A stretch of 39,407 nucleotides of DNA from Candidatus Gribaldobacteria bacterium (GCA_026396705.1 JAPLWE010000058.1:1-39407), one strand, 5' to 3'. Positions 1-32,594 are shown, counted from the stretch's first letter. Notes: generated from the letters alone by a model not told the origin. Program-made: numbers and translations.

Positions 1-113
1 AATGGTAAAGAGATCATCCCTACTGCAAATAATCCCCAAAGAGTTAAAACAGCTGCGATAATCAGCAGAAAATAATCAGGTAGAGATTTTTTTTTAATTA
101 CTTTTTTGTCCAT
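1..113 (-). CDS. SEDS-family protein (FtsW/RodA-like), first 37 codons only, runs off the window
   Basis: ATG at 113..111 overlaps the murD stop by 20 nt. Translation MDKKVIKKKSLPDYFLLIIAAVLTLWGLFAVGMISLP is a basic N-terminus followed by a TM helix. Its position after mraY-murD matches the conserved dcw order. Not in the ORF track because it is truncated. Confidence 0.4.
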   Translation of the reverse strand, partial: MDKKVIKKKSLPDYFLLIIAAVLTLWGLFAVGMISLP

Positions 114-1434
114 ATTTTTTTACCCATTTTTTGAACTGTTCTCCCCTGTTTTGATAATCCTTAAACATATTAAAACTGGCTGAGGCTGGCGAAAGCAAAC
201 AAATACCGTCTTTGGGCGTTTGTTGATAGCAAATCCTAACCGCCTCTTCCATACTTTGCGCTTGGAAGGAGGGAACCTCCTTCCTTTTAGGAAGGAGGTT
301 CCCTCCTTCCAGCTTGTTTACAATCTTTTGGCCAGTCCCCTGGCCTAGAATAATCAAATTTTTTACTGAGCTCTTGGCAATTTCTTTAGCTAGTAAGCTA
401 TAGTCGCTACCCTTGTCTGAACCGCCAATAATCAAAGAAATTTTTTTGTTGCTAAAAGTTTTAAGGTCTAAAATTGTTGTTTCCGGAACCGTGGCCATTG
501 AATTGTTGTAAAACTCAATGCCTTGATATTTGCCGACGAACTCTAGGCGGTGCGGTAAATTTTGGAAAGTTTTTATGGCTTTTTTAATTTTTTCTTTTTG
601 GATATTAAAGGGAGTAGTGGCTAAAACAGCGGCCAAAACATTTAAGTAATTAAACTCGCCTTGCAGGGGAATTTCTTTGAGGTTGATAATATTTTCAACT
701 ATTTTCAGCTTTGCTTTGTTAAAAGTAACTTGACGCGCTTTGCTTTGGCTGGCGATTTTTTTTACTAATGGCTCTTGGCCATTATAAACTAAAAGGTCGT
801 TTTTTGTTTGATGTATGGCTATATTTGCTTTAGCCTTGGCGTATTCCTGGAAATTAGTAAAGTAATCTAAATGATCAGAAAATAAATTTAAAAAAACAGC
901 GATTTGTGGCGATTTTTTAAGATCCCGTAACTGCTGAGCTGATATTTCATAAACCGCAATGTGGTCGGGCTTGGCGTTGAGTAGATACTGCATGACAGGA
1001 TTGCCTACATTGCCAAGAAAAAACGCTTTCAAACGAGCAGTTTTGAGAATTTGATAAATCAAACCAGAAGTGGTGCCCTTACCTTTAGTGCCAGTTACCC
1101 CAATAATCAACCCGGGAAAATTATCAAAAAATATTTCGGCCTGCGAAGTTGTTTGTAGGGAACCGAGTTCCTTACATGAAATGCCGGGGGCCTTAATAAT
1201 CAAATCATACTCCCCCGCTTTATTTAAGTAATTGTTTCCAAAATATTTTTTTAAGTTTTTATCTTTGGCTAAAATTGTTTGAACTTTTTTGTCAAAATAT
1301 TTTAATTCCTTTTTATCGGCCACTGCTAAAATCTTATGCGGAAATATTTTGCGCAAAGCCAAATAACTGTCAATCCCCTCTTTGCCCAACCCCAAAATCA
1401 AAATATTTTTATTTTCTAAATTTTCTAATTTCAT
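94..1434 (-). CDS. murD: UDP-N-acetylmuramoylalanine--D-glutamate ligase
   Basis: N-terminal Rossmann motif ILILGLGKEG, Mur-ligase P-loop GVTGTKGKGTT, C-terminal LLSPASASFNMFKDYQNRGEQF typical of MurD. Sits directly downstream of mraY. Confidence 0.85.
   Translation of the reverse strand: MKLENLENKNILILGLGKEGIDSYLALRKIFPHKILAVADKKELKYFDKKVQTILAKDKNLKKYFGNNYLNKAGEYDLIIKAPGISCKELGSLQTTSQAEIFFDNFPGLIIGVTGTKGKGTTSGLIYQILKTARLKAFFLGNVGNPVMQYLLNAKPDHIAVYEISAQQLRDLKKSPQIAVFLNLFSDHLDYFTNFQEYAKAKANIAIHQTKNDLLVYNGQEPLVKKIASQSKARQVTFNKAKLKIVENIINLKEIPLQGEFNYLNVLAAVLATTPFNIQKEKIKKAIKTFQNLPHRLEFVGKYQGIEFYNNSMATVPETTILDLKTFSNKKISLIIGGSDKGSDYSLLAKEIAKSSVKNLIILGQGTGQKIVNKLEGGNLLPKRKEVPSFQAQSMEEAVRICYQQTPKDGICLLSPASASFNMFKDYQNRGEQFKKWVKKYGQKSN
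264..310. repeat. Perfect 21-nt inverted repeat (5-nt spacer) inside the murD coding sequence
   Basis: GGAAGGAGGGAACCTCCTTCC (264..284), TTTTA, GGAAGGAGGTTCCCTCCTTCC (290..310). Each arm is itself self-complementary (GGAAGGAGG-N3-CCTCCTTCC). Read in-frame as EGGNLLPKRKEVPSF. Confidence 0.9.
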
Positions 1435-12793: not shown

Positions 12794-14134
12794 ATGAAAG
12801 GAAATATTTTCACGGCAGTATTGGGTATGAGCAGTGGTTTGACAGTCCAGCGATGGAACGAAAAAGAAGTAGAAACAGTTTGCCAGATGACCATTCCTTG
12901 GATAGGAAATGACAAAGATATCTTTTGGCCGGAGCAGTGGTTGAGATCTGTGGTGGAGTTAGTGAACTCTTACGCAGAACAGGGCGATACAATTGCCTGG
13001 GCAATGCCCGGAGCGGATCTTGCTTTTGTAGAGAGATATCGAGTAAGTATGTCAGAGCGGGCTTATCGGCTTATTCTGCCGATTCTTAGTTATCAATCTC
13101 TGGCAGACGGAGTCATTTTTGAAGAGATTAACAAGATGGTTAATCCTAAAAAAGCCTATAGGCAAATGGCTGGGGCTAATTGGGCATTTTTTCAACCGCC
13201 TTCTCATATCTTTTATTACCTAAAGGAGCTTCAATCAGGGGATTTCAAAGTTATTAGTCTGGCAGATTGGATCAGTTATCTTGCCAAGGGGGCTAAAACC
13301 GAAATACCTGTTCACGATTCAACTATGTTGCAAAGTATGGGGGCATATGATTTTGACGGTAGTACTAGCGGGCTATATACTGAACTATTCGGCGAGGACA
13401 CAGCAGAAAAAATTTTCCCATTTGATGTTTTAGGGGAAAATGCTTATTCTACAATTGACGATATTAAGATTATTCCCTGCAGCCACGATTCGGTTTTTGC
13501 CCGCAGAATTGGCTTTAGTGTTTGTCCATCAGGTATTTGGACTGGCACTTGGGTGGGTACCAGCGATTGGATCGGCGAAAAAAATATCAAACCATCAAAC
13601 AAAACATTTGATGCGGGCATTGCTTTTGAGGGCTTAGGTAATTTAAGAGCTTTAATCACTAACATCTCTATGGCTGGGGCTATTTACAAAGCCATTGTCC
13701 AAAAGCTCGGCTGGAGCTATGAGCAAGCGTCTAAAAAGGCGGCAGAAGCGGTGTCCCATCTTGGAAGCCAGGTAGTATTTGATCTTGATGAATTGCCAAC
13801 AGACACTGAAGCGGTGGAGAAGCTTGTTGCAGGAAAAGCTCTTAATGCTGGCGATTACACTTTAGCTTATCTCCTTCAAAGTTTAGCGGCAGCTTGTCGC
13901 AGAAAAAAGGAAGCTGTTTATAAAATCCTGCGGCGAAAAGTACCAGAGGAAGTAGCGGTTTTTGGCGGTTTTGCTGAAAACCAGGCTTTTCTACAAGCCC
14001 TAAAAAACTTCGGTTTTGAGCCGATCGTTCCAAAATTCGCTAGCAATGCCACTCACGCTGGGCTAGCCATGGATGCTCTTATCAGAACTGGTCAAGCCGC
14101 TAACGACCAAGAAGCGCTAAGTATGTTGCGATGA
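12794..14134 (+). CDS. Divergent FGGY-family carbohydrate kinase-like protein (rhamnulokinase-like)
   Basis: AGGAG SD 8 nt upstream. CSHDSVFA (compare SHDTASA), GTWVG, VFGGFAENQAFLQAL and NATHAGLAMDAL parallel RhaB-type kinases. The N-terminal AVLGMSSG lacks the usual Asp. Confidence 0.55.
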   Translation: MKGNIFTAVLGMSSGLTVQRWNEKEVETVCQMTIPWIGNDKDIFWPEQWLRSVVELVNSYAEQGDTIAWAMPGADLAFVERYRVSMSERAYRLILPILSYQSLADGVIFEEINKMVNPKKAYRQMAGANWAFFQPPSHIFYYLKELQSGDFKVISLADWISYLAKGAKTEIPVHDSTMLQSMGAYDFDGSTSGLYTELFGEDTAEKIFPFDVLGENAYSTIDDIKIIPCSHDSVFARRIGFSVCPSGIWTGTWVGTSDWIGEKNIKPSNKTFDAGIAFEGLGNLRALITNISMAGAIYKAIVQKLGWSYEQASKKAAEAVSHLGSQVVFDLDELPTDTEAVEKLVAGKALNAGDYTLAYLLQSLAAACRRKKEAVYKILRRKVPEEVAVFGGFAENQAFLQALKNFGFEPIVPKFASNATHAGLAMDALIRTGQAANDQEALSMLR

Positions 14135-18080: not shown

Positions 18081-18094
18081 ATTTTTAATTTTAG

Positions 18095-18260
18095 GACTTG
18101 CGTATTTGGGGCGAAGAAATTAATTTTGCGGAGTTTCCACAGGCAAAATGCTTGGTTTGGCCAGCAGGCCAAATTTTGCCGAGGACTAAGCGAGCCGCCG
18201 CAGGAGCGGCGAGCGGCTCCGCAAAATTCAATTTCTTCGCCCCAAACATTAGCGTAAGTT
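18095..18260. repeat. GC-rich branched-palindrome element, copy C (diverged, inverted relative to A/B)
   Basis: Its reverse complement aligns end to end with copies A and B. Termini GACTTGCG.../...CGTAAGTT. All stems are retained by compensatory changes, and GCTTAGT and ACCAAGC are conserved. Confidence 0.85.
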
Positions 18261-18285
18261 GTGCGAACTTCATAAATAGCGACCT

Positions 18286-20706: not shown

Positions 20707-20785
20707 CTTTTCTATTCCGCTTACATTTATTCTGTTATTATACTGCTTTTTTTCTCTGTCAACAAAGGTGGATAACCTGCCTTTT

Positions 20786-20822
20786 CTTTGAAATTAGTTT
20801 CCTCGCCACCAAGGCGCAAGTC
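20786..20822. repeat. Solo 3'-arm fragment (D) of the palindrome family
   Basis: CTTTGAAATTAGTTTCCTCGCC is 22/22 identical to the 3' arm of A/B and ends in the family terminus GCGCAAGTC. No matching 5' arm upstream. Confidence 0.7.
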
Positions 20823-21549
20823 ATGCATTAAGTAATAACGCGGCGCCGATGGCGGAGGCATTTTGGCCTAACTTGGCTAAAGCAATTTTGGGCATTTGCG
20901 TTTTGGGCCAAAGCAAGTTTTTTGCAAGGAACTCGGTTCCTTGCAAAGAGAGGGACCGCGCGCCTGCCCCGCCCAAAATAATTATTTCTGGATTAAAAAT
21001 GTTAATTAAATTAGCCAAACCAATAGCGTTTATTTTTTCTTGTTCTTTGGGTTTATTTTTGGTTGCTTGATAAAGCTTTTCCCAGCTTTGTCCTTTATTA
21101 ATAATTATGTGGCCAACTTCACCAGAAGGGGCGGGTAAAATTTTATCGTTTATCATTAGCGCTCCCCCAATACCAGTGCCTAAAGTCACCGCTAAGATAT
21201 TGCTGTATCCTCTGCCCGCTCCAAGCATTGCTTCGGCTCGCAAGAAGCAATGAACATCATTATCTATTCTAACAATTTTATCAGGCCAAAGTTTTTTTAG
21301 ATTGAGCCCGTCTAATTGAGGCGCATTGGGGCACTTAATAATCTGACCATTGATTGCGTTAAAAATCCCCGGCACGCCAATCCCGATTTTTAGCAAGCCA
21401 TACTCCCCCACTATTGCTTTGAGATTTTCTTTATTGGGAGCGCCAGTAATTTGTTTTTGTTCAACAATTTTTTGCCCATTCCAAACAACCAAATTAATTT
21501 TCGACCCGCCAATATCCACCCCCAAAATATTTTCTTTTTTGATAGTCAT
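20821..21549 (-). CDS. ROK/ASKHA-family glucokinase-like sugar kinase
   Basis: ILGVDIGGSKINLV, GIGVPG and LGTGIGGAL. Start moved to MTIKKEN (ATG 21549). The ROK Cys-rich zinc motif is not evident. Confidence 0.65.
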   Translation of the reverse strand: MTIKKENILGVDIGGSKINLVVWNGQKIVEQKQITGAPNKENLKAIVGEYGLLKIGIGVPGIFNAINGQIIKCPNAPQLDGLNLKKLWPDKIVRIDNDVHCFLRAEAMLGAGRGYSNILAVTLGTGIGGALMINDKILPAPSGEVGHIIINKGQSWEKLYQATKNKPKEQEKINAIGLANLINIFNPEIIILGGAGARSLSLQGTEFLAKNLLWPKTQMPKIALAKLGQNASAIGAALLLNA

Positions 21550-21587
21550 TATTACTATTTGATTATTATTTAATAATAGCATAAAAC

Positions 21588-25378: not shown

Positions 25379-25843
25379 TTAGCCTATTTCAAACATTTTT
25401 TCGCAAAAAGGACATCTAATGACCGAGCAGTCTTCGGGTTCGCCCAAAATAACTAGCTCTAAGTTTTTTATTGAATTGTCGTCTTTAAGCTTATTTTTAT
25501 GGCGCACTGCTTCATTAGGTTTTAATTCTCTGCCCAGGAATTGTTCCATTATCCAGCGGTGTTCGGGTAGATAGCCTCTTTTGTTGGCGTTGGGGTGGTC
25601 AGGGGCGTAAACCATGATATAGCCACTTTGGCTATCTTTGTATTTACCTCCTTTCCAATAGGGATTATTGGGGCCACTGCGGTCAGCTTCATAAGGCCTC
25701 ACTTCCCTAATTTCAAAGCGGGCTGCCCAACGAGAAATTGTGGTAATATTCACTCCGCACGAGATGGCTATCTCTGAAATAGTTAGCTCTTCGGTAAGGT
25801 ATTTTTTGCAAAGCCAATTCTTATTTTGATAATTTTTTTCCAT
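25379..25843 (-). CDS. HTH + HNH endonuclease-domain protein
   Basis: N-terminal HTH (LTISEIAISCGVNITTISRWA). HNH region GYLPEHRWIMEQ...VRHKNKLKDDNSIKNLEL. C-terminal CPFC knuckle. First gene behind the CIRCE promoter. Confidence 0.7.
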   Translation of the reverse strand: MEKNYQNKNWLCKKYLTEELTISEIAISCGVNITTISRWAARFEIREVRPYEADRSGPNNPYWKGGKYKDSQSGYIMVYAPDHPNANKRGYLPEHRWIMEQFLGRELKPNEAVRHKNKLKDDNSIKNLELVILGEPEDCSVIRCPFCEKMFEIG

Positions 25844-27727: not shown

Positions 27728-27745
27728 AATGATTGGTTGATGCGG

Positions 27746-27910
27746 GGCTTGATGTTAGAGGCTCGGAAAGTTGATTTCAAAGAGACGCTCACTCGCTCCG
27801 GCGGCTCGTTCGCTTAGTTTTCGGCCTATTTTCCGCCAGTAAGCGGAACCAAGCAAATAGGCCTCAAAATACTCTTTGAAATTAGTTTCCTCGCCTCTAA
27901 CATGCAAGTC
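27746..27910. repeat. GC-rich branched-palindrome element, copy A
   Basis: About 38-nt imperfect terminal inverted repeats and two internal hairpins. Core 27779..27895 is identical to 30174..30290. Confidence 0.9.
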
Positions 27911-29405
27911 ATACAATGTTTAATAGTGATAGCAAACCGTTAGGTACACGGCTTTCTAATAGGATGATGTCGTTGGGACGGGCAATGGTTTTGATTTTTG
28001 CTAAAATTTGTTCTGGTTTTTCTAGTAATAAAATTTTATTTTCAGCCAGGCCTGCCTCCAAGGCGCCTTGTCTTAATTCTTTGAATCTGTCTTGGGTGGT
28101 GATAATTGCTAAATCGCAAATTTGGCCAATGGCTTGGCCGATTTTATAATGAATATTTTTTGAGGCTTTGCCCAGCTCTATTAAACAGGGCATAACAATA
28201 ATTTTATGCTCTTGTGGCCAAGCAGTTTTTAGATATTCTAAATGGGCCATAATGCTGGCTGGATTGGCTGAATAGGTATAATCAAGTATATTAAGGTCGT
28301 TAATCCCCTGCTTTAAGCTGTGTGAGCGAATCTTTTGGCAAGCCAAAGCGATTTCAGCCATAGTCATACCTAATGTTTTAGCCACAGCTGTAGCCATTAA
28401 AACATTGATAATATTTTGCTTACCAATGAGGTTTATCTCAAATTGCGCTTTGTCGTTATCTTTACTCAAGGCGGTAAAAGAAACTTTTTCTTTTTCTATT
28501 TTTATGTCTTCAGCCCAGATATCCGCCTTTGCTTTAGTTGAGCAGAATATTTTAGATTTCAGCTGTAGATTTGAAAATTGGTAATTGGTAATTGGTAATT
28601 TTTCATCGTCTCCATTTAGTATAGCCGTCCCCTGCTCATTCAGCGACTCTATTAACTCAAATTTTGCTTTAATAATATTTTCTTGCGAGCCAAAACAGGC
28701 CAAATGTTGTTCGTTGATGCCAGTTAACACGCCAATTTGTGGCTCAAGTATAGCGCAAACTTGTTTAATCTTCCCTCGCTGGTAGGCGCCCACTTCAGCT
28801 ATTAAAATTTGATGCTCGGGCTTGAGCTTATTAATAATTGTTTGGGCGATGCCAATTTCTGCGTTGGTGTTTTTTTCGGTTGACAATACTGAAAATTTTT
28901 CTGAAAGCATGGCTAAAAGAAAATCTTTAGTTGATGTTTTGCCATAACTGCCAGTTATAGCGATAACCGTAAGGTTTTTGAATTGTTTCCTTTTGGCTTT
29001 GGCTTTTTTCATCACATAACTTTGCCAAAGCCAAGTGGGAATTTGAAAAATTAAAATAAAGACCGAGCTGATAATTGGCAAGAAAAATAGCCAAAGCAAA
29101 ATCAGCAAGCGGAAAAGGTTGTCAGGCTGGTTGAAAATAAGCCAAAAAAAAGCCCCTTGCGAAAGAAACCAAAGATCGGCTATTAAAATTGTTTTTTTGG
29201 TAGCCAATGGCAACTTAGCGCGATACCAAGAAGCCATTAACTTTTTAATTTTTTGACCCTCAAAATGGGCGCTAAAACGACCCAAGTGATAATTTTTTAA
29301 CTGCCAGAGCCATAGCCAAAACAAAAATATCTTGGCGAAAAATAAATACCAAAAAATAGAGATAATAATTTTAATTATTTGTTCCATGGTTGCTTGTTGA
29401 GCCAA
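27909..29405 (-). CDS. murF: MurF-type Mur ligase with an N-terminal multi-TM region
   Basis: P-loop ITGSYGKTSTK at aa ~151, then NTNAEIGIAQTI and a Mur-ligase C-terminal domain. The first ~135 aa are three hydrophobic W/F/L-rich segments. An alternative start at M7 (29387) is possible. Confidence 0.75.
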   Translation of the reverse strand: MAQQATMEQIIKIIISIFWYLFFAKIFLFWLWLWQLKNYHLGRFSAHFEGQKIKKLMASWYRAKLPLATKKTILIADLWFLSQGAFFWLIFNQPDNLFRLLILLWLFFLPIISSVFILIFQIPTWLWQSYVMKKAKAKRKQFKNLTVIAITGSYGKTSTKDFLLAMLSEKFSVLSTEKNTNAEIGIAQTIINKLKPEHQILIAEVGAYQRGKIKQVCAILEPQIGVLTGINEQHLACFGSQENIIKAKFELIESLNEQGTAILNGDDEKLPITNYQFSNLQLKSKIFCSTKAKADIWAEDIKIEKEKVSFTALSKDNDKAQFEINLIGKQNIINVLMATAVAKTLGMTMAEIALACQKIRSHSLKQGINDLNILDYTYSANPASIMAHLEYLKTAWPQEHKIIVMPCLIELGKASKNIHYKIGQAIGQICDLAIITTQDRFKELRQGALEAGLAENKILLLEKPEQILAKIKTIARPNDIILLESRVPNGLLSLLNIV

Positions 29406-30117: not shown

Positions 30118-30136
30118 TGCGTTTTTTTTAATTCAA

Positions 30137-30304
30137 ACTTATGTGGTTGTTAGTGGCTCGGAAGACTAATTTTAAAGAGACGCTCACTCGCTCCGGCGGC
30201 TCGTTCGCTTAGTTTTCGGCCTATTTTCCGCCAGTAAGCGGAACCAAGCAAATAGGCCTCAAAATACTCTTTGAAATTAGTTTCCTCGCCCCTAACCAGT
30301 AGTC
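30137..30304. repeat. GC-rich branched-palindrome element, copy B
   Basis: Same architecture and orientation as copy A. Core 30174..30290 is identical to A. The aligned 25-nt segments of the two 5' arms differ only by 5 transitions. Confidence 0.9.
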
Positions 30305-30314
30305 TGCGATAATT

Positions 30315-32088: not shown

Positions 32089-32346
32089 TTAGTTATATAT
32101 ATTATGAAGGCCAACTTCTAAAAATAAAACTTCGGATTGATTGATAAAAATAAATTTAATTCTGTAAGAATAATTAATCCAGAACGCCCAGCATCCACTG
32201 TCTTTTCCTGATAATTTATGAGTTTTCAATGATGGGTCAAATGGATAAACGCGAAAAATCCCTTCTTTTTCTTTGGCCTGTTCTTTGATTTTTTTAGGCA
32301 ATCGTTTATATTGTTTTTCAAACTTTGGCGATACCCTAATAATCAT
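32089..32346 (-). CDS. RelE/ParE-superfamily type II toxin
   Basis: 85 aa. The pattern KTHKLSGKDSGCWAFWINYSYRIKFIF...LFLEVGLHNIY matches RelE/YafQ-like toxins. Starts 2 nt after the antitoxin ORF. Confidence 0.7.
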   Translation of the reverse strand: MIIRVSPKFEKQYKRLPKKIKEQAKEKEGIFRVYPFDPSLKTHKLSGKDSGCWAFWINYSYRIKFIFINQSEVLFLEVGLHNIYN

Positions 32347-32348
32347 AT

Positions 32349-32594
32349 TTAATCTAAATCAGCCAATGACTTTATTGTTTTACATTTACCAGCTTTATAC
32401 TCGGCCACCCCATCTCTAATTAACCAATCCAATTCCTGCGCTTCCTTGCCCTCTAAATGATGTATGGGCACTGCGTTTTCACACAATCTTTTATATTCCC
32501 GCAAAGACAAAATAACCATTCCTTTTTGCCTTAAAATGGTTGCTTTTGACAGGGTTATATTGTCTTTTATCTGGTGTTTTGCCATATGTTTCAT
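32349..32594 (-). CDS. Cognate antitoxin (Phd/RelB-like)
   Basis: 81-aa ORF immediately upstream of the toxin, in the typical two-gene arrangement. Confidence 0.55.
   Translation of the reverse strand: MKHMAKHQIKDNITLSKATILRQKGMVILSLREYKRLCENAVPIHHLEGKEAQELDWLIRDGVAEYKAGKCKTIKSLADLD

Follow-up and report, generated by a model that had tools for sequence, protein, structure and literature searches.

A probable MITE-like family of TA-flanked palindromic repeats in gene junctions of Patescibacteria

Two GC-rich palindromes, copies A and B, in a 39,407-nt stretch of DNA from Candidatus Gribaldobacteria (the whole stretch is referred to here as the window) are probably members of a new MITE-like family of the Correia/ERIC/RUP kind that is composed of two subfamilies, occurs in Patescibacteria, targets TA and depends on an unseen transposase acting in trans. 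The element resembles a MITE in being a non-coding unit of less than 300 bp with terminal inverted repeats (TIRs), an apparent TA duplication, and dispersed copies with filled and empty sites. A TA target that is duplicated upon insertion is also the mark of the IS630/Tc1-mariner superfamily, for which TA is the target. Small size, TIRs, TA termini, a target-site duplication (TSD), and stem-loop transcripts are known hallmarks of bacterial MITEs (PMC2229807, PMC10969869). The preliminary description of this DNA had suggested a mobile palindrome of the MITE, REP, or ERIC kind; the dispersed copies, junction polymorphism, TA flanks, and truncated or hybrid copies agree with a MITE/ERIC-like element, but not with a REP. 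A search of the full-text literature gave no earlier account of MITE-like repeats from Patescibacteria (Candidate Phyla Radiation) or Gribaldobacteria.

Copies in the window and in other genomes

Copy A (27745..27911) is a full-length member of subfamily 1 that scores 200 bits with the covariance model (CM) and separates the stop codon of murF from the start of ftsQ, while copy B (30131..30309; 191 bits), also of subfamily 1, lies between the serS stop and the start of a hydrolase gene. The A/B type is named subfamily 1, and the type of copy D, described below, is named subfamily 2. Both A and B are on the plus strand; the strand given for any copy is its "plus sense," i.e., the strand that tolerates wobble pairs, which is window-plus for these two. 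The ends of A were fixed by comparing the related contigs L009 and L019 and read TA/TGACTTGC...GTAAGTCC/TA. In copy B, the part homologous to A is 30137-30304, and TA flanks stand at 30129-30130 and 30310-30311. The element is 165-175 nt long, with imperfect inverted arms of approximately 45 bp. Direct comparison of A with B confirmed the shared core reported previously, an uninterrupted identical run of 117 nt (27779-27895 = 30174-30290), and a repeat search of the window aligned 27753-27901 with 30148-30296 at 95% identity; the right arm (24 nt) and internal hairpin (41 nt) of A gave no chance matches in shuffled sequence. The copies are 2.4 kb apart in unrelated DNA, and their neighbors encode FtsQ, a MurF-type Mur ligase, an alpha/beta hydrolase, and SerS, all on the minus strand, so that the placement given in the preliminary description was correct. 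Its statement that the elements are "much" more GC-rich than their surroundings holds for the direction but not for the degree, with a G+C content of 47.9% in the element vs. 38.5% in the window.

A third full-length copy, D (18094..18261, minus strand; 146 bits), was detected by BLAST and the covariance model. It is approximately 70% identical to A, belongs to subfamily 2, and is flanked by TA (18092-18093) and TG, and its plus sense runs the same way as the flanking GH57 and DUF5752 genes. The truncated copy C (20784..20823, plus strand) is a solo 3' arm whose last three bases are the TGA stop of a ROK gene (20821-21582, minus strand). In total, the window has three full copies (A, B, and D) and one partial copy (C).

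Outside the window, eight more distinct full copies were found in groundwater and sediment Patescibacteria, including Candidatus Gribaldobacteria, together with one copy cut by a contig end (L020). A metagenome scan gave four of the full copies, on L003, L006 (Hainich groundwater), L007, and L009; copies were also found on NCBI MAG contigs (L010-L014, L015/16, and L017), and a further full copy is on L019. The metagenome and MAG copies, Gribaldobacteria included, are 87-94% identical to A. On the L010-L017 contigs, the neighbors of one copy are a 74-aa gene and a DUF8128 gene, secA and secD enclose a solo arm, and another copy lies upstream of recG. A protein search with the translation of the open frame returned three "hypothetical proteins" (P0001-P0003), all of which are other copies of the element, two from Candidatus Gribaldobacteria MAGs of Crystal Geyser and one from another Patescibacteria MAG. 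That A and B are the product of a single local segmental duplication, with neither a family nor mobility behind them, is extremely improbable: the 2.4-kb spacing and the 117-nt identical core speak for it, but the flanks are unrelated, relatives have empty sites, and C, D, and the eight full and one contig-cut copies elsewhere contradict the notion, named earlier as grounds for refutation, that A and B are the only copies.

Scans of other collections gave little. The genome-collection scan, run with a pattern that demanded CTCTTTGAAAT, returned two chance matches only, and since half of the copies have CTCCTTGAAAT, such scans under-sample the abundance of the family. Viral-contig scans, plasmid BLAST, and phage BLAST gave zero matches to the element, and a concatenated six-frame "bait" protein query had no match. 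A known RNA family was ruled out because Rfam gave no relevant match at either level: at gathering score, Rfam 15 finds only a tRNA in the window, and at E<=10 over the element, the best results are chance miRNA and viral-leader matches of 19-20 bits.

Several copies are degraded. Besides solo arms (copy C; L010 3332-3367), they comprise a copy that lacks the outer stem (L003), a hybrid on L019, and a copy with an internal insertion (L015/L016 10162-10238) of 77 nt, which consists of two clean hairpins placed exactly in the conserved junction and brings the element there to 250 nt. Such forms are decay products typical of transposons.

Other repeats and small genes were observed alongside the family. 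The hybrid of L019 (2916-3087) has a nested-palindrome interior that is unlike subfamilies 1 and 2, and a 51-nt piece of this interior recurs at L010 9831-9881, in the PGK-DHH spacer of a Gribaldobacteria contig, which points to at least one additional structured repeat family in these genomes. In the window, 262-312 is a perfect 21-bp inverted repeat, GGAAGGAGGGAACCTCCTTCC-TTTTA-GGAAGGAGGTTCCCTCCTTCC, inside the MurD ORF (94-1434, minus strand); it coincides with an insertion of approximately 7 aa relative to the solved MurD structure 3lk7 and has the appearance of a palindromic insert that keeps the frame, as known from the Rickettsia RPEs. Two related short palindromes, GTAGGGAACCGAGTTCCTTAC and GCAAGGAACTCGGTTCCTTGC, are found at 1152-1181 and 20918-20947, inside MurD and ROK coding sequence. 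Two different organisms (L015 7438-7473 and 8135-8170; L018 8257-8292) share an intergenic 36-bp palindrome, perfect or nearly so, TGCAACAAACAAGAACGA/TCGTTCTTGTTTGTTGCA, which could be a terminator or a further small repeat. Among the genes of the window, a weak, sub-threshold RelE/StbE-like toxin ORF (E 6e-4, 20 bits vs. a cut-off of 28) with a small upstream partner ORF lies at 32089-32594 (minus strand), and an HNH_3 endonuclease gene that adjoins grpE, kept in relatives L018 and L019, lies at 25379-25843 (minus strand).

Insertion sites, target, and effect on genes

A MurF search showed the window to be an entire contig of 39.4 kb and identified four close relatives with 82-83% amino acid identity; at the DNA level, the murF, ftsQ, and hydrolase genes of the relatives share 79-85% identity with those of the window. 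At the murF-ftsQ junction, the window and L009 each have a subfamily 1 copy; L019 has the hybrid, in which the outer ends are unchanged and the interior consists of unrelated nested palindromes; L020 has a subfamily 2 copy in reversed orientation with an identical boundary (GTATGA/CTTGCGC); and L018 has no element, its murF and ftsQ overlapping (ATGA). At the serS-hydrolase junction, the window has subfamily 1 and L019 has subfamily 2, while L018 and L020 are empty, with the ATG 0-6 nt after the stop. L009 is not comparable there, having unrelated DNA upstream of the hydrolase gene and a contig end approximately 150 nt further; this DNA (L009 7553-7700) is GC-rich and unrelated to the serS side of the window, so synteny breaks at that point. 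The presence or absence of the element, and of other copies, at the same junctions shows it to be an insertion/deletion polymorphism and is incompatible with a single duplication. The element-free alleles are imperfectly clean, as L018 has 31 unrelated nt at its murF-ftsQ junction and the filled serS-hydrolase alleles have 10-12 additional nt before the ATG. Approximately 150 kb of syntenic and related contigs (L018, L021-L028) have zero copies, and the Gribaldobacteria MurF proteins recovered are 48-49% identical and come from element-free contigs. In a more distant Gribaldobacteria relative (L023 9362-9557), three tandem repeats of approximately 44 nt follow murF, and the element is absent.

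Between the window and L009, the element at the murF-ftsQ site is 93.2% identical, compared with 83-85% for murF, ftsQ, and the hydrolase gene, which argues for constraint, conversion, or re-insertion and against neutral decay. The differing subfamilies and orientations at one site likewise speak for turnover and/or constraint and against the neutral decay of a dead insertion. At one site, the interior can change subfamily or orientation with the outer ends unchanged, which points to turnover by re-insertion or by recombination between the shared arm sequences (GGGGCGAGGAAA...); in the mechanism that we propose, recombination between the long arms would produce the interior swaps and flips.

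With all copies aligned one way, the consensus termini are (T/G)GACTTGCGC...GCGCAAGTC(C/A). TA stands at 13 of 16 flank positions of eight independent loci, on both sides at five loci and on one side, with TG on the other, at the remaining three. Given a TA frequency of 0.069 in the window, 13/16 has P~4e-13, a value to be read with the fact that the offsets (2 nt, 6 nt for B, and 0 nt for L003) were read off the data and chosen after seeing them. The L003 copy, without the outer stem, is directly bounded by TA...TA. For A, the TA on the murF side is 27912..27913, and its counterpart, 27743-27744, is CG in the window and TA in L009 and L019. As judged from these sequences, the flanks fit a TA target-site duplication. 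The earlier statement that there is no obvious TSD proved wrong for the family, most copies having TA on both sides and the second TA of A being mutated to CG. The base 3' of the 3' TA is mostly C, by which the target resembles TTA/C, and TTAC is the target of IS608. It is conceivable, at a low probability, that the "TA duplication" is a one-sided target motif joined to the element's own terminal motif, as would suit movement through a single strand; the symmetrical, two-sided TA is most simply read as a TSD.

The element also affects the genes next to it. The murF TGA stop codon (27909..27911, minus strand) is made of the final three bases of copy A, and wherever a relative has an element or hybrid here, its MurF terminates in ...LLNIV* or ...LLNII* on the element's terminal TGA. 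In the element-free L018, MurF extends to ...QDMNDRSHNATLKSINQFL* and overlaps ftsQ. The stop codon of the ROK gene is likewise supplied by copy C, and the native sequence just before the ftsQ start (CATCAACCAAT..ATG) is kept downstream of the element. Landing in packed or overlapping gene junctions thus makes the terminal TGA of the element the stop of the upstream gene.

No ORF of 60 aa or more had been noted inside the element, which is right for A, where the longest has 53 aa; across copies the longest ORF is 53-64 aa. Copies A and L009, which occupy the same site, differ by a 1-nt indel that puts the sole long frame out of register, so the element is non-coding, and a protein-coding role is ruled out by this frameshift, the database "homologues" being spurious ORFs on other copies.

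Under the MITE-like reading, a TA-specific transposase with its gene elsewhere would mobilize the element in trans, and the obvious candidate, by analogy with RUP, would be an IS630/Tc1-mariner-like enzyme. No transposase was found in the window, nor was the cognate RAYT or IS transposase suggested earlier as a target of search, and the gene tables of element-bearing loci include no autonomous partner with the same ends. The sole opposite-strand ORF without a Pfam match (12794-14134) matches NCBIfam only below threshold, to a sugar kinase (anhydro-MurNAc kinase, E 0.025). After insertion, the element would be co-transcribed with the host operon, and its hairpin may affect mRNA processing, as in Correia and ERIC elements.

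Fold, covariation, and strand bias

A and B each fold into a small multi-branch core at the end of a long imperfect stem, and both copies form the internal hairpin within the long stem as previously drawn. In A, the long stem, P1, has its 5' arm at 27753..27784 (plus strand), which is the more variable arm and holds the G.U positions, and its 3' arm (CTCTTTGAAATTAGTTTCCTCGCC...) at 27872..27902 (plus strand), which is the most conserved arm and the one that stands alone in copy C. Between them lie the conserved and mostly unpaired junction ACGCTCACTCGCTCCGGCGGCTCGTTCGCTTAGTTTTC (27785..27822, plus strand) and the internal hairpin GGCCTATTT(TCCGC-cagtaa-GCGGA)accaagcAAATAGGCC (27823..27863, plus strand). 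The folding z-scores are -6.9 (plus strand) and -6.0 (minus strand) for A, and -3.9 (plus strand), with a similar value on the minus strand, for B. The arms of A also have outward promoter-like hexamers, TTGAAA-N16/17-TAACAT, at 27752-27780 (minus strand) and 27876-27903 (plus strand); their -10-like part differs among copies, and the promoter role is putative. An own promoter or terminator was ruled out, as there are weak outward hexamers only and no T-tract terminator.

The stems show compensatory change. Over 13 copies, pairing stands at 95% for the 29 pairs of the stem; with 11 copies, RNAalifold yields 48 pairs, of which 15 have compensatory changes, and in the 13-copy model alignment 96.5% of the cells are paired and 18/48 pairs are changed on both sides. 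None of 500 shuffles reaches any of the five measures used, and sliding the partners by 1-3 columns lowers pairing to 36-57% and both-side-changed pairs to 2-5. The internal hairpin covaries at 8 of 14 pairs, which co-evolution of the TIRs with a transposase cannot explain, since these pairs are not terminal repeats. Compensatory change is also seen within subfamily 1, where one pair is A-U or G-C at 5:5 and the L003 hairpin has two such changes. Copy D retains the architecture of A through whole blocks of compensatory change, namely CAAAGAG/CTCTTTG to TGCGGAG/CTCCGCA and GGCCTATTT/AAATAGGCC to GGCAAAATT/ATTTTGCC. The junction (…GCTCGTTCGCTTAGTTTTCGGCC) and the bulge ACCAAGCA are nearly invariant, across subfamilies as well, and TCGCTTAGT in the junction is invariant in 11/11 aligned copies, subfamily 2 included. 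Variability is greatest at the termini and conservation is greatest at the internal junction, whereas a MITE usually has conserved ends around an interior that is free to vary.

The mismatches are biased toward one strand. On the plus sense, the non-Watson-Crick cells are 33 G.U, 4 A.C, and 16 others; counted by pair position, G.U occurs at 17 and A.C at 3 (binomial p ~0.003). Transitions outside the arms are not biased (6 vs. 5), and the G.U:A.C ratio is 9:0 (8:0 in the model-fitted alignment) in the gene-codirectional copies D, L015, and L003 and 18:4 in the gene-opposed copies. A mutational bias behind the G.U excess is ruled out by the balanced outside transitions and by the persistence of the bias in gene-inverted copies; since it persists whichever way the genes point, it is not a by-product of neighboring transcription. 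The five transitions between A and B that first suggested this bias, all in the 5' arm, are real; four had been placed at paired positions, and in the consensus structure all five are paired, each switching between Watson-Crick and G.U on the plus strand. The one-strand wobble from which a plus-sense RNA had been argued thus extends across the family, but the idea that such an RNA is antisense to all flanking genes is true of A and B and not of D, and fails as a general rule, since in 11 independent placements the plus sense is antisense to the neighboring genes seven times and sense four times.

Strand-biased wobble together with covarying stems implies that one strand folded alone matters, as RNA or ssDNA, and it seems that such a single-stranded form of the element does matter. 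A double-stranded cut-and-paste element does not require a covarying internal core or strand-biased mismatches. For the MITE-like reading, the upkeep of the stems and the one-strand wobble would mean that some step of persistence or spread uses that strand folded alone. Another account, in which the element is mobile through a single-stranded intermediate (ssDNA of the IS200/IS605 type or an RNA copy) whose plus sense folds for recognition, is quite unlikely. In its favor are the confinement of wobble to one strand regardless of gene orientation, the lack of such a bias among transitions outside the arms, the covarying internal hairpins, and a 3' flank that is often TA-C with a TTAC-like target, but the element pairs end to end, whereas IS200/IS605 elements have separate subterminal hairpins and no long TIRs; moreover, no Y1/HUH transposase, TnpB, or reverse transcriptase is found in the window or beside any copy. 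Minimum free energies have no consistent plus-sense preference either: the choice of strand by folding energy is ambiguous, with A, L006, and L015 favoring plus and L007, L010, and L017 favoring minus.

The element could instead be a structured RNA selected by the host, acting in the plus sense as a multi-copy sRNA or as a cis processing or insulator module with mobility secondary, which is unlikely. Its stems covary around the invariant unpaired TCGCTTAGT and ACCAAGCA even between subfamilies that are 70% identical, its junction accepts two extra hairpins in the manner of the variable regions of structured RNAs, and same-site copies are more conserved than the adjoining genes, with elements 87-94% identical across organisms whose MurF, in at least one case, shares only approximately 83% identity with that of the window; the G.U bias toward one strand also fits. 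Against this, no promoter or terminator is conserved, the hexamers being weak and outward only; the neighboring genes are functionally unrelated and the orientation is mixed (7:4); close relatives lack the element at the same junctions; truncated, hybrid, and solo-arm copies occur; and no Rfam family matches. In addition, the plus sense has a conserved 2x2 loop of U.C/C.U mismatches that would read as a tandem G.A motif on the opposite strand, and tandem G.A pairs are stabilizing, so these mismatches would gain stability on the other strand. The broader proposition that the plus-sense single strand is the active form, either as an ncRNA module or as the substrate of an undescribed single-strand mobilization system of Patescibacteria, is given a small but real chance. 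It would explain the unpaired conserved core, the covarying internal helices, the one-strand wobble, the above-gene conservation, and the cassette-like exchange of interiors at fixed junctions.

Significance and relation to known elements

Patescibacteria genomes are very small and densely packed, with start and stop codons that overlap. An element that sits within essential operons (murF-ftsQ and serS) and supplies a stop codon of its own illustrates how mobile DNA is tolerated in genomes of this kind. As a marker, the family is also of practical use, since it splits operons and gives rise to spurious "hypothetical protein" calls (P0001-P0003), and it probably breaks assemblies, the contig L020 stopping within a copy. 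Should the covarying and strand-biased core reflect a single-stranded active form, at present the less favored reading, it would be an entry to an unknown mobilization or RNA mechanism in an uncultured lineage.

REP/BIME units are 20-40 nt long, have a conserved GTAG-type head, and are usually clustered. The element is similar to them in being intergenic, palindromic, and GC-richer than its surroundings, and REPs are thought to act as single-stranded hairpins; a REP/BIME (RAYT) assignment is ruled out by its branched unit of 165-175 nt, its single copies, and a window without a RAYT/Y1 transposase. An integron attC site is also ruled out, as GTTAGAG/CTCTAAC merely approximates RYYYAAC/GTTRRRY, the neighbors are the housekeeping genes murF, ftsQ, and serS, and the window has no integrase. 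In comparison with IS200/IS605-derived palindromes, which have no TSD and insert 3' of a fixed tetra- or pentanucleotide, the long end-to-end TIRs are unlike, while the TTA/C-like target and the one-strand wobble would be compatible.

YPAL/RU-2 (168 bp), an intergenic repeat of Yersinia, is transcribed together with the genes upstream of it, and its sites are filled in some close relatives and empty in others (PMC2229807). The present element is of near-equal length and, like YPAL, is not AT-rich relative to the genome, but YPAL has no TA termini and has variable duplications of 3-26 bp and internal inverted repeats. RUP of Streptococcus pneumoniae, likewise small, non-coding, and bounded by TIRs, uses TA as its insertion site; an IS630-family transposase (IS630-Spn1) is its proposed mobilizer, and RUP is the model for trans-mobilization (PMC2229807). 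It differs in being 107 bp long, with another structure and a known partner IS with matching TIRs, whereas none was found here. The ERIC/IRU elements of enterobacteria are imperfect palindromes of similar size that are transcribed, intergenic, present in either orientation, and possess TA termini with a TSD (PMC2229807). Their TIRs are short, perfect, and 7 bp long (PMC2229807), and their effects on mRNA stability are orientation-dependent (PMC10969869). Their sequence is unrelated to the present one, in which an ERIC-like open reading frame is not conserved.

The Correia elements (CREE/NEMIS) of Neisseria are non-coding units of approximately 100-200 bp with TIRs, TA termini, and target duplication (PMC2229807, PMC10969869, PMC2649163). 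They lie beside or between genes, form long stem-loop transcripts, include subtypes with internal insertion or deletion, and have outward promoter-like hexamers (PMC2229807, PMC10969869, PMC2649163), and in-place inversion has been reported for them (PMC10969869). The present family differs in its dissimilar sequence, its occurrence in another phylum, its arms of approximately 45 bp vs. 24-26 in Correia, its junction that outranks the termini in conservation, its covarying internal hairpins, and its strand-biased wobble. It resembles Correia in its TA flanks, in the same-site differences of orientation, and in the outward TTGAAA-N16/17-TAACAT hexamers of both arms.
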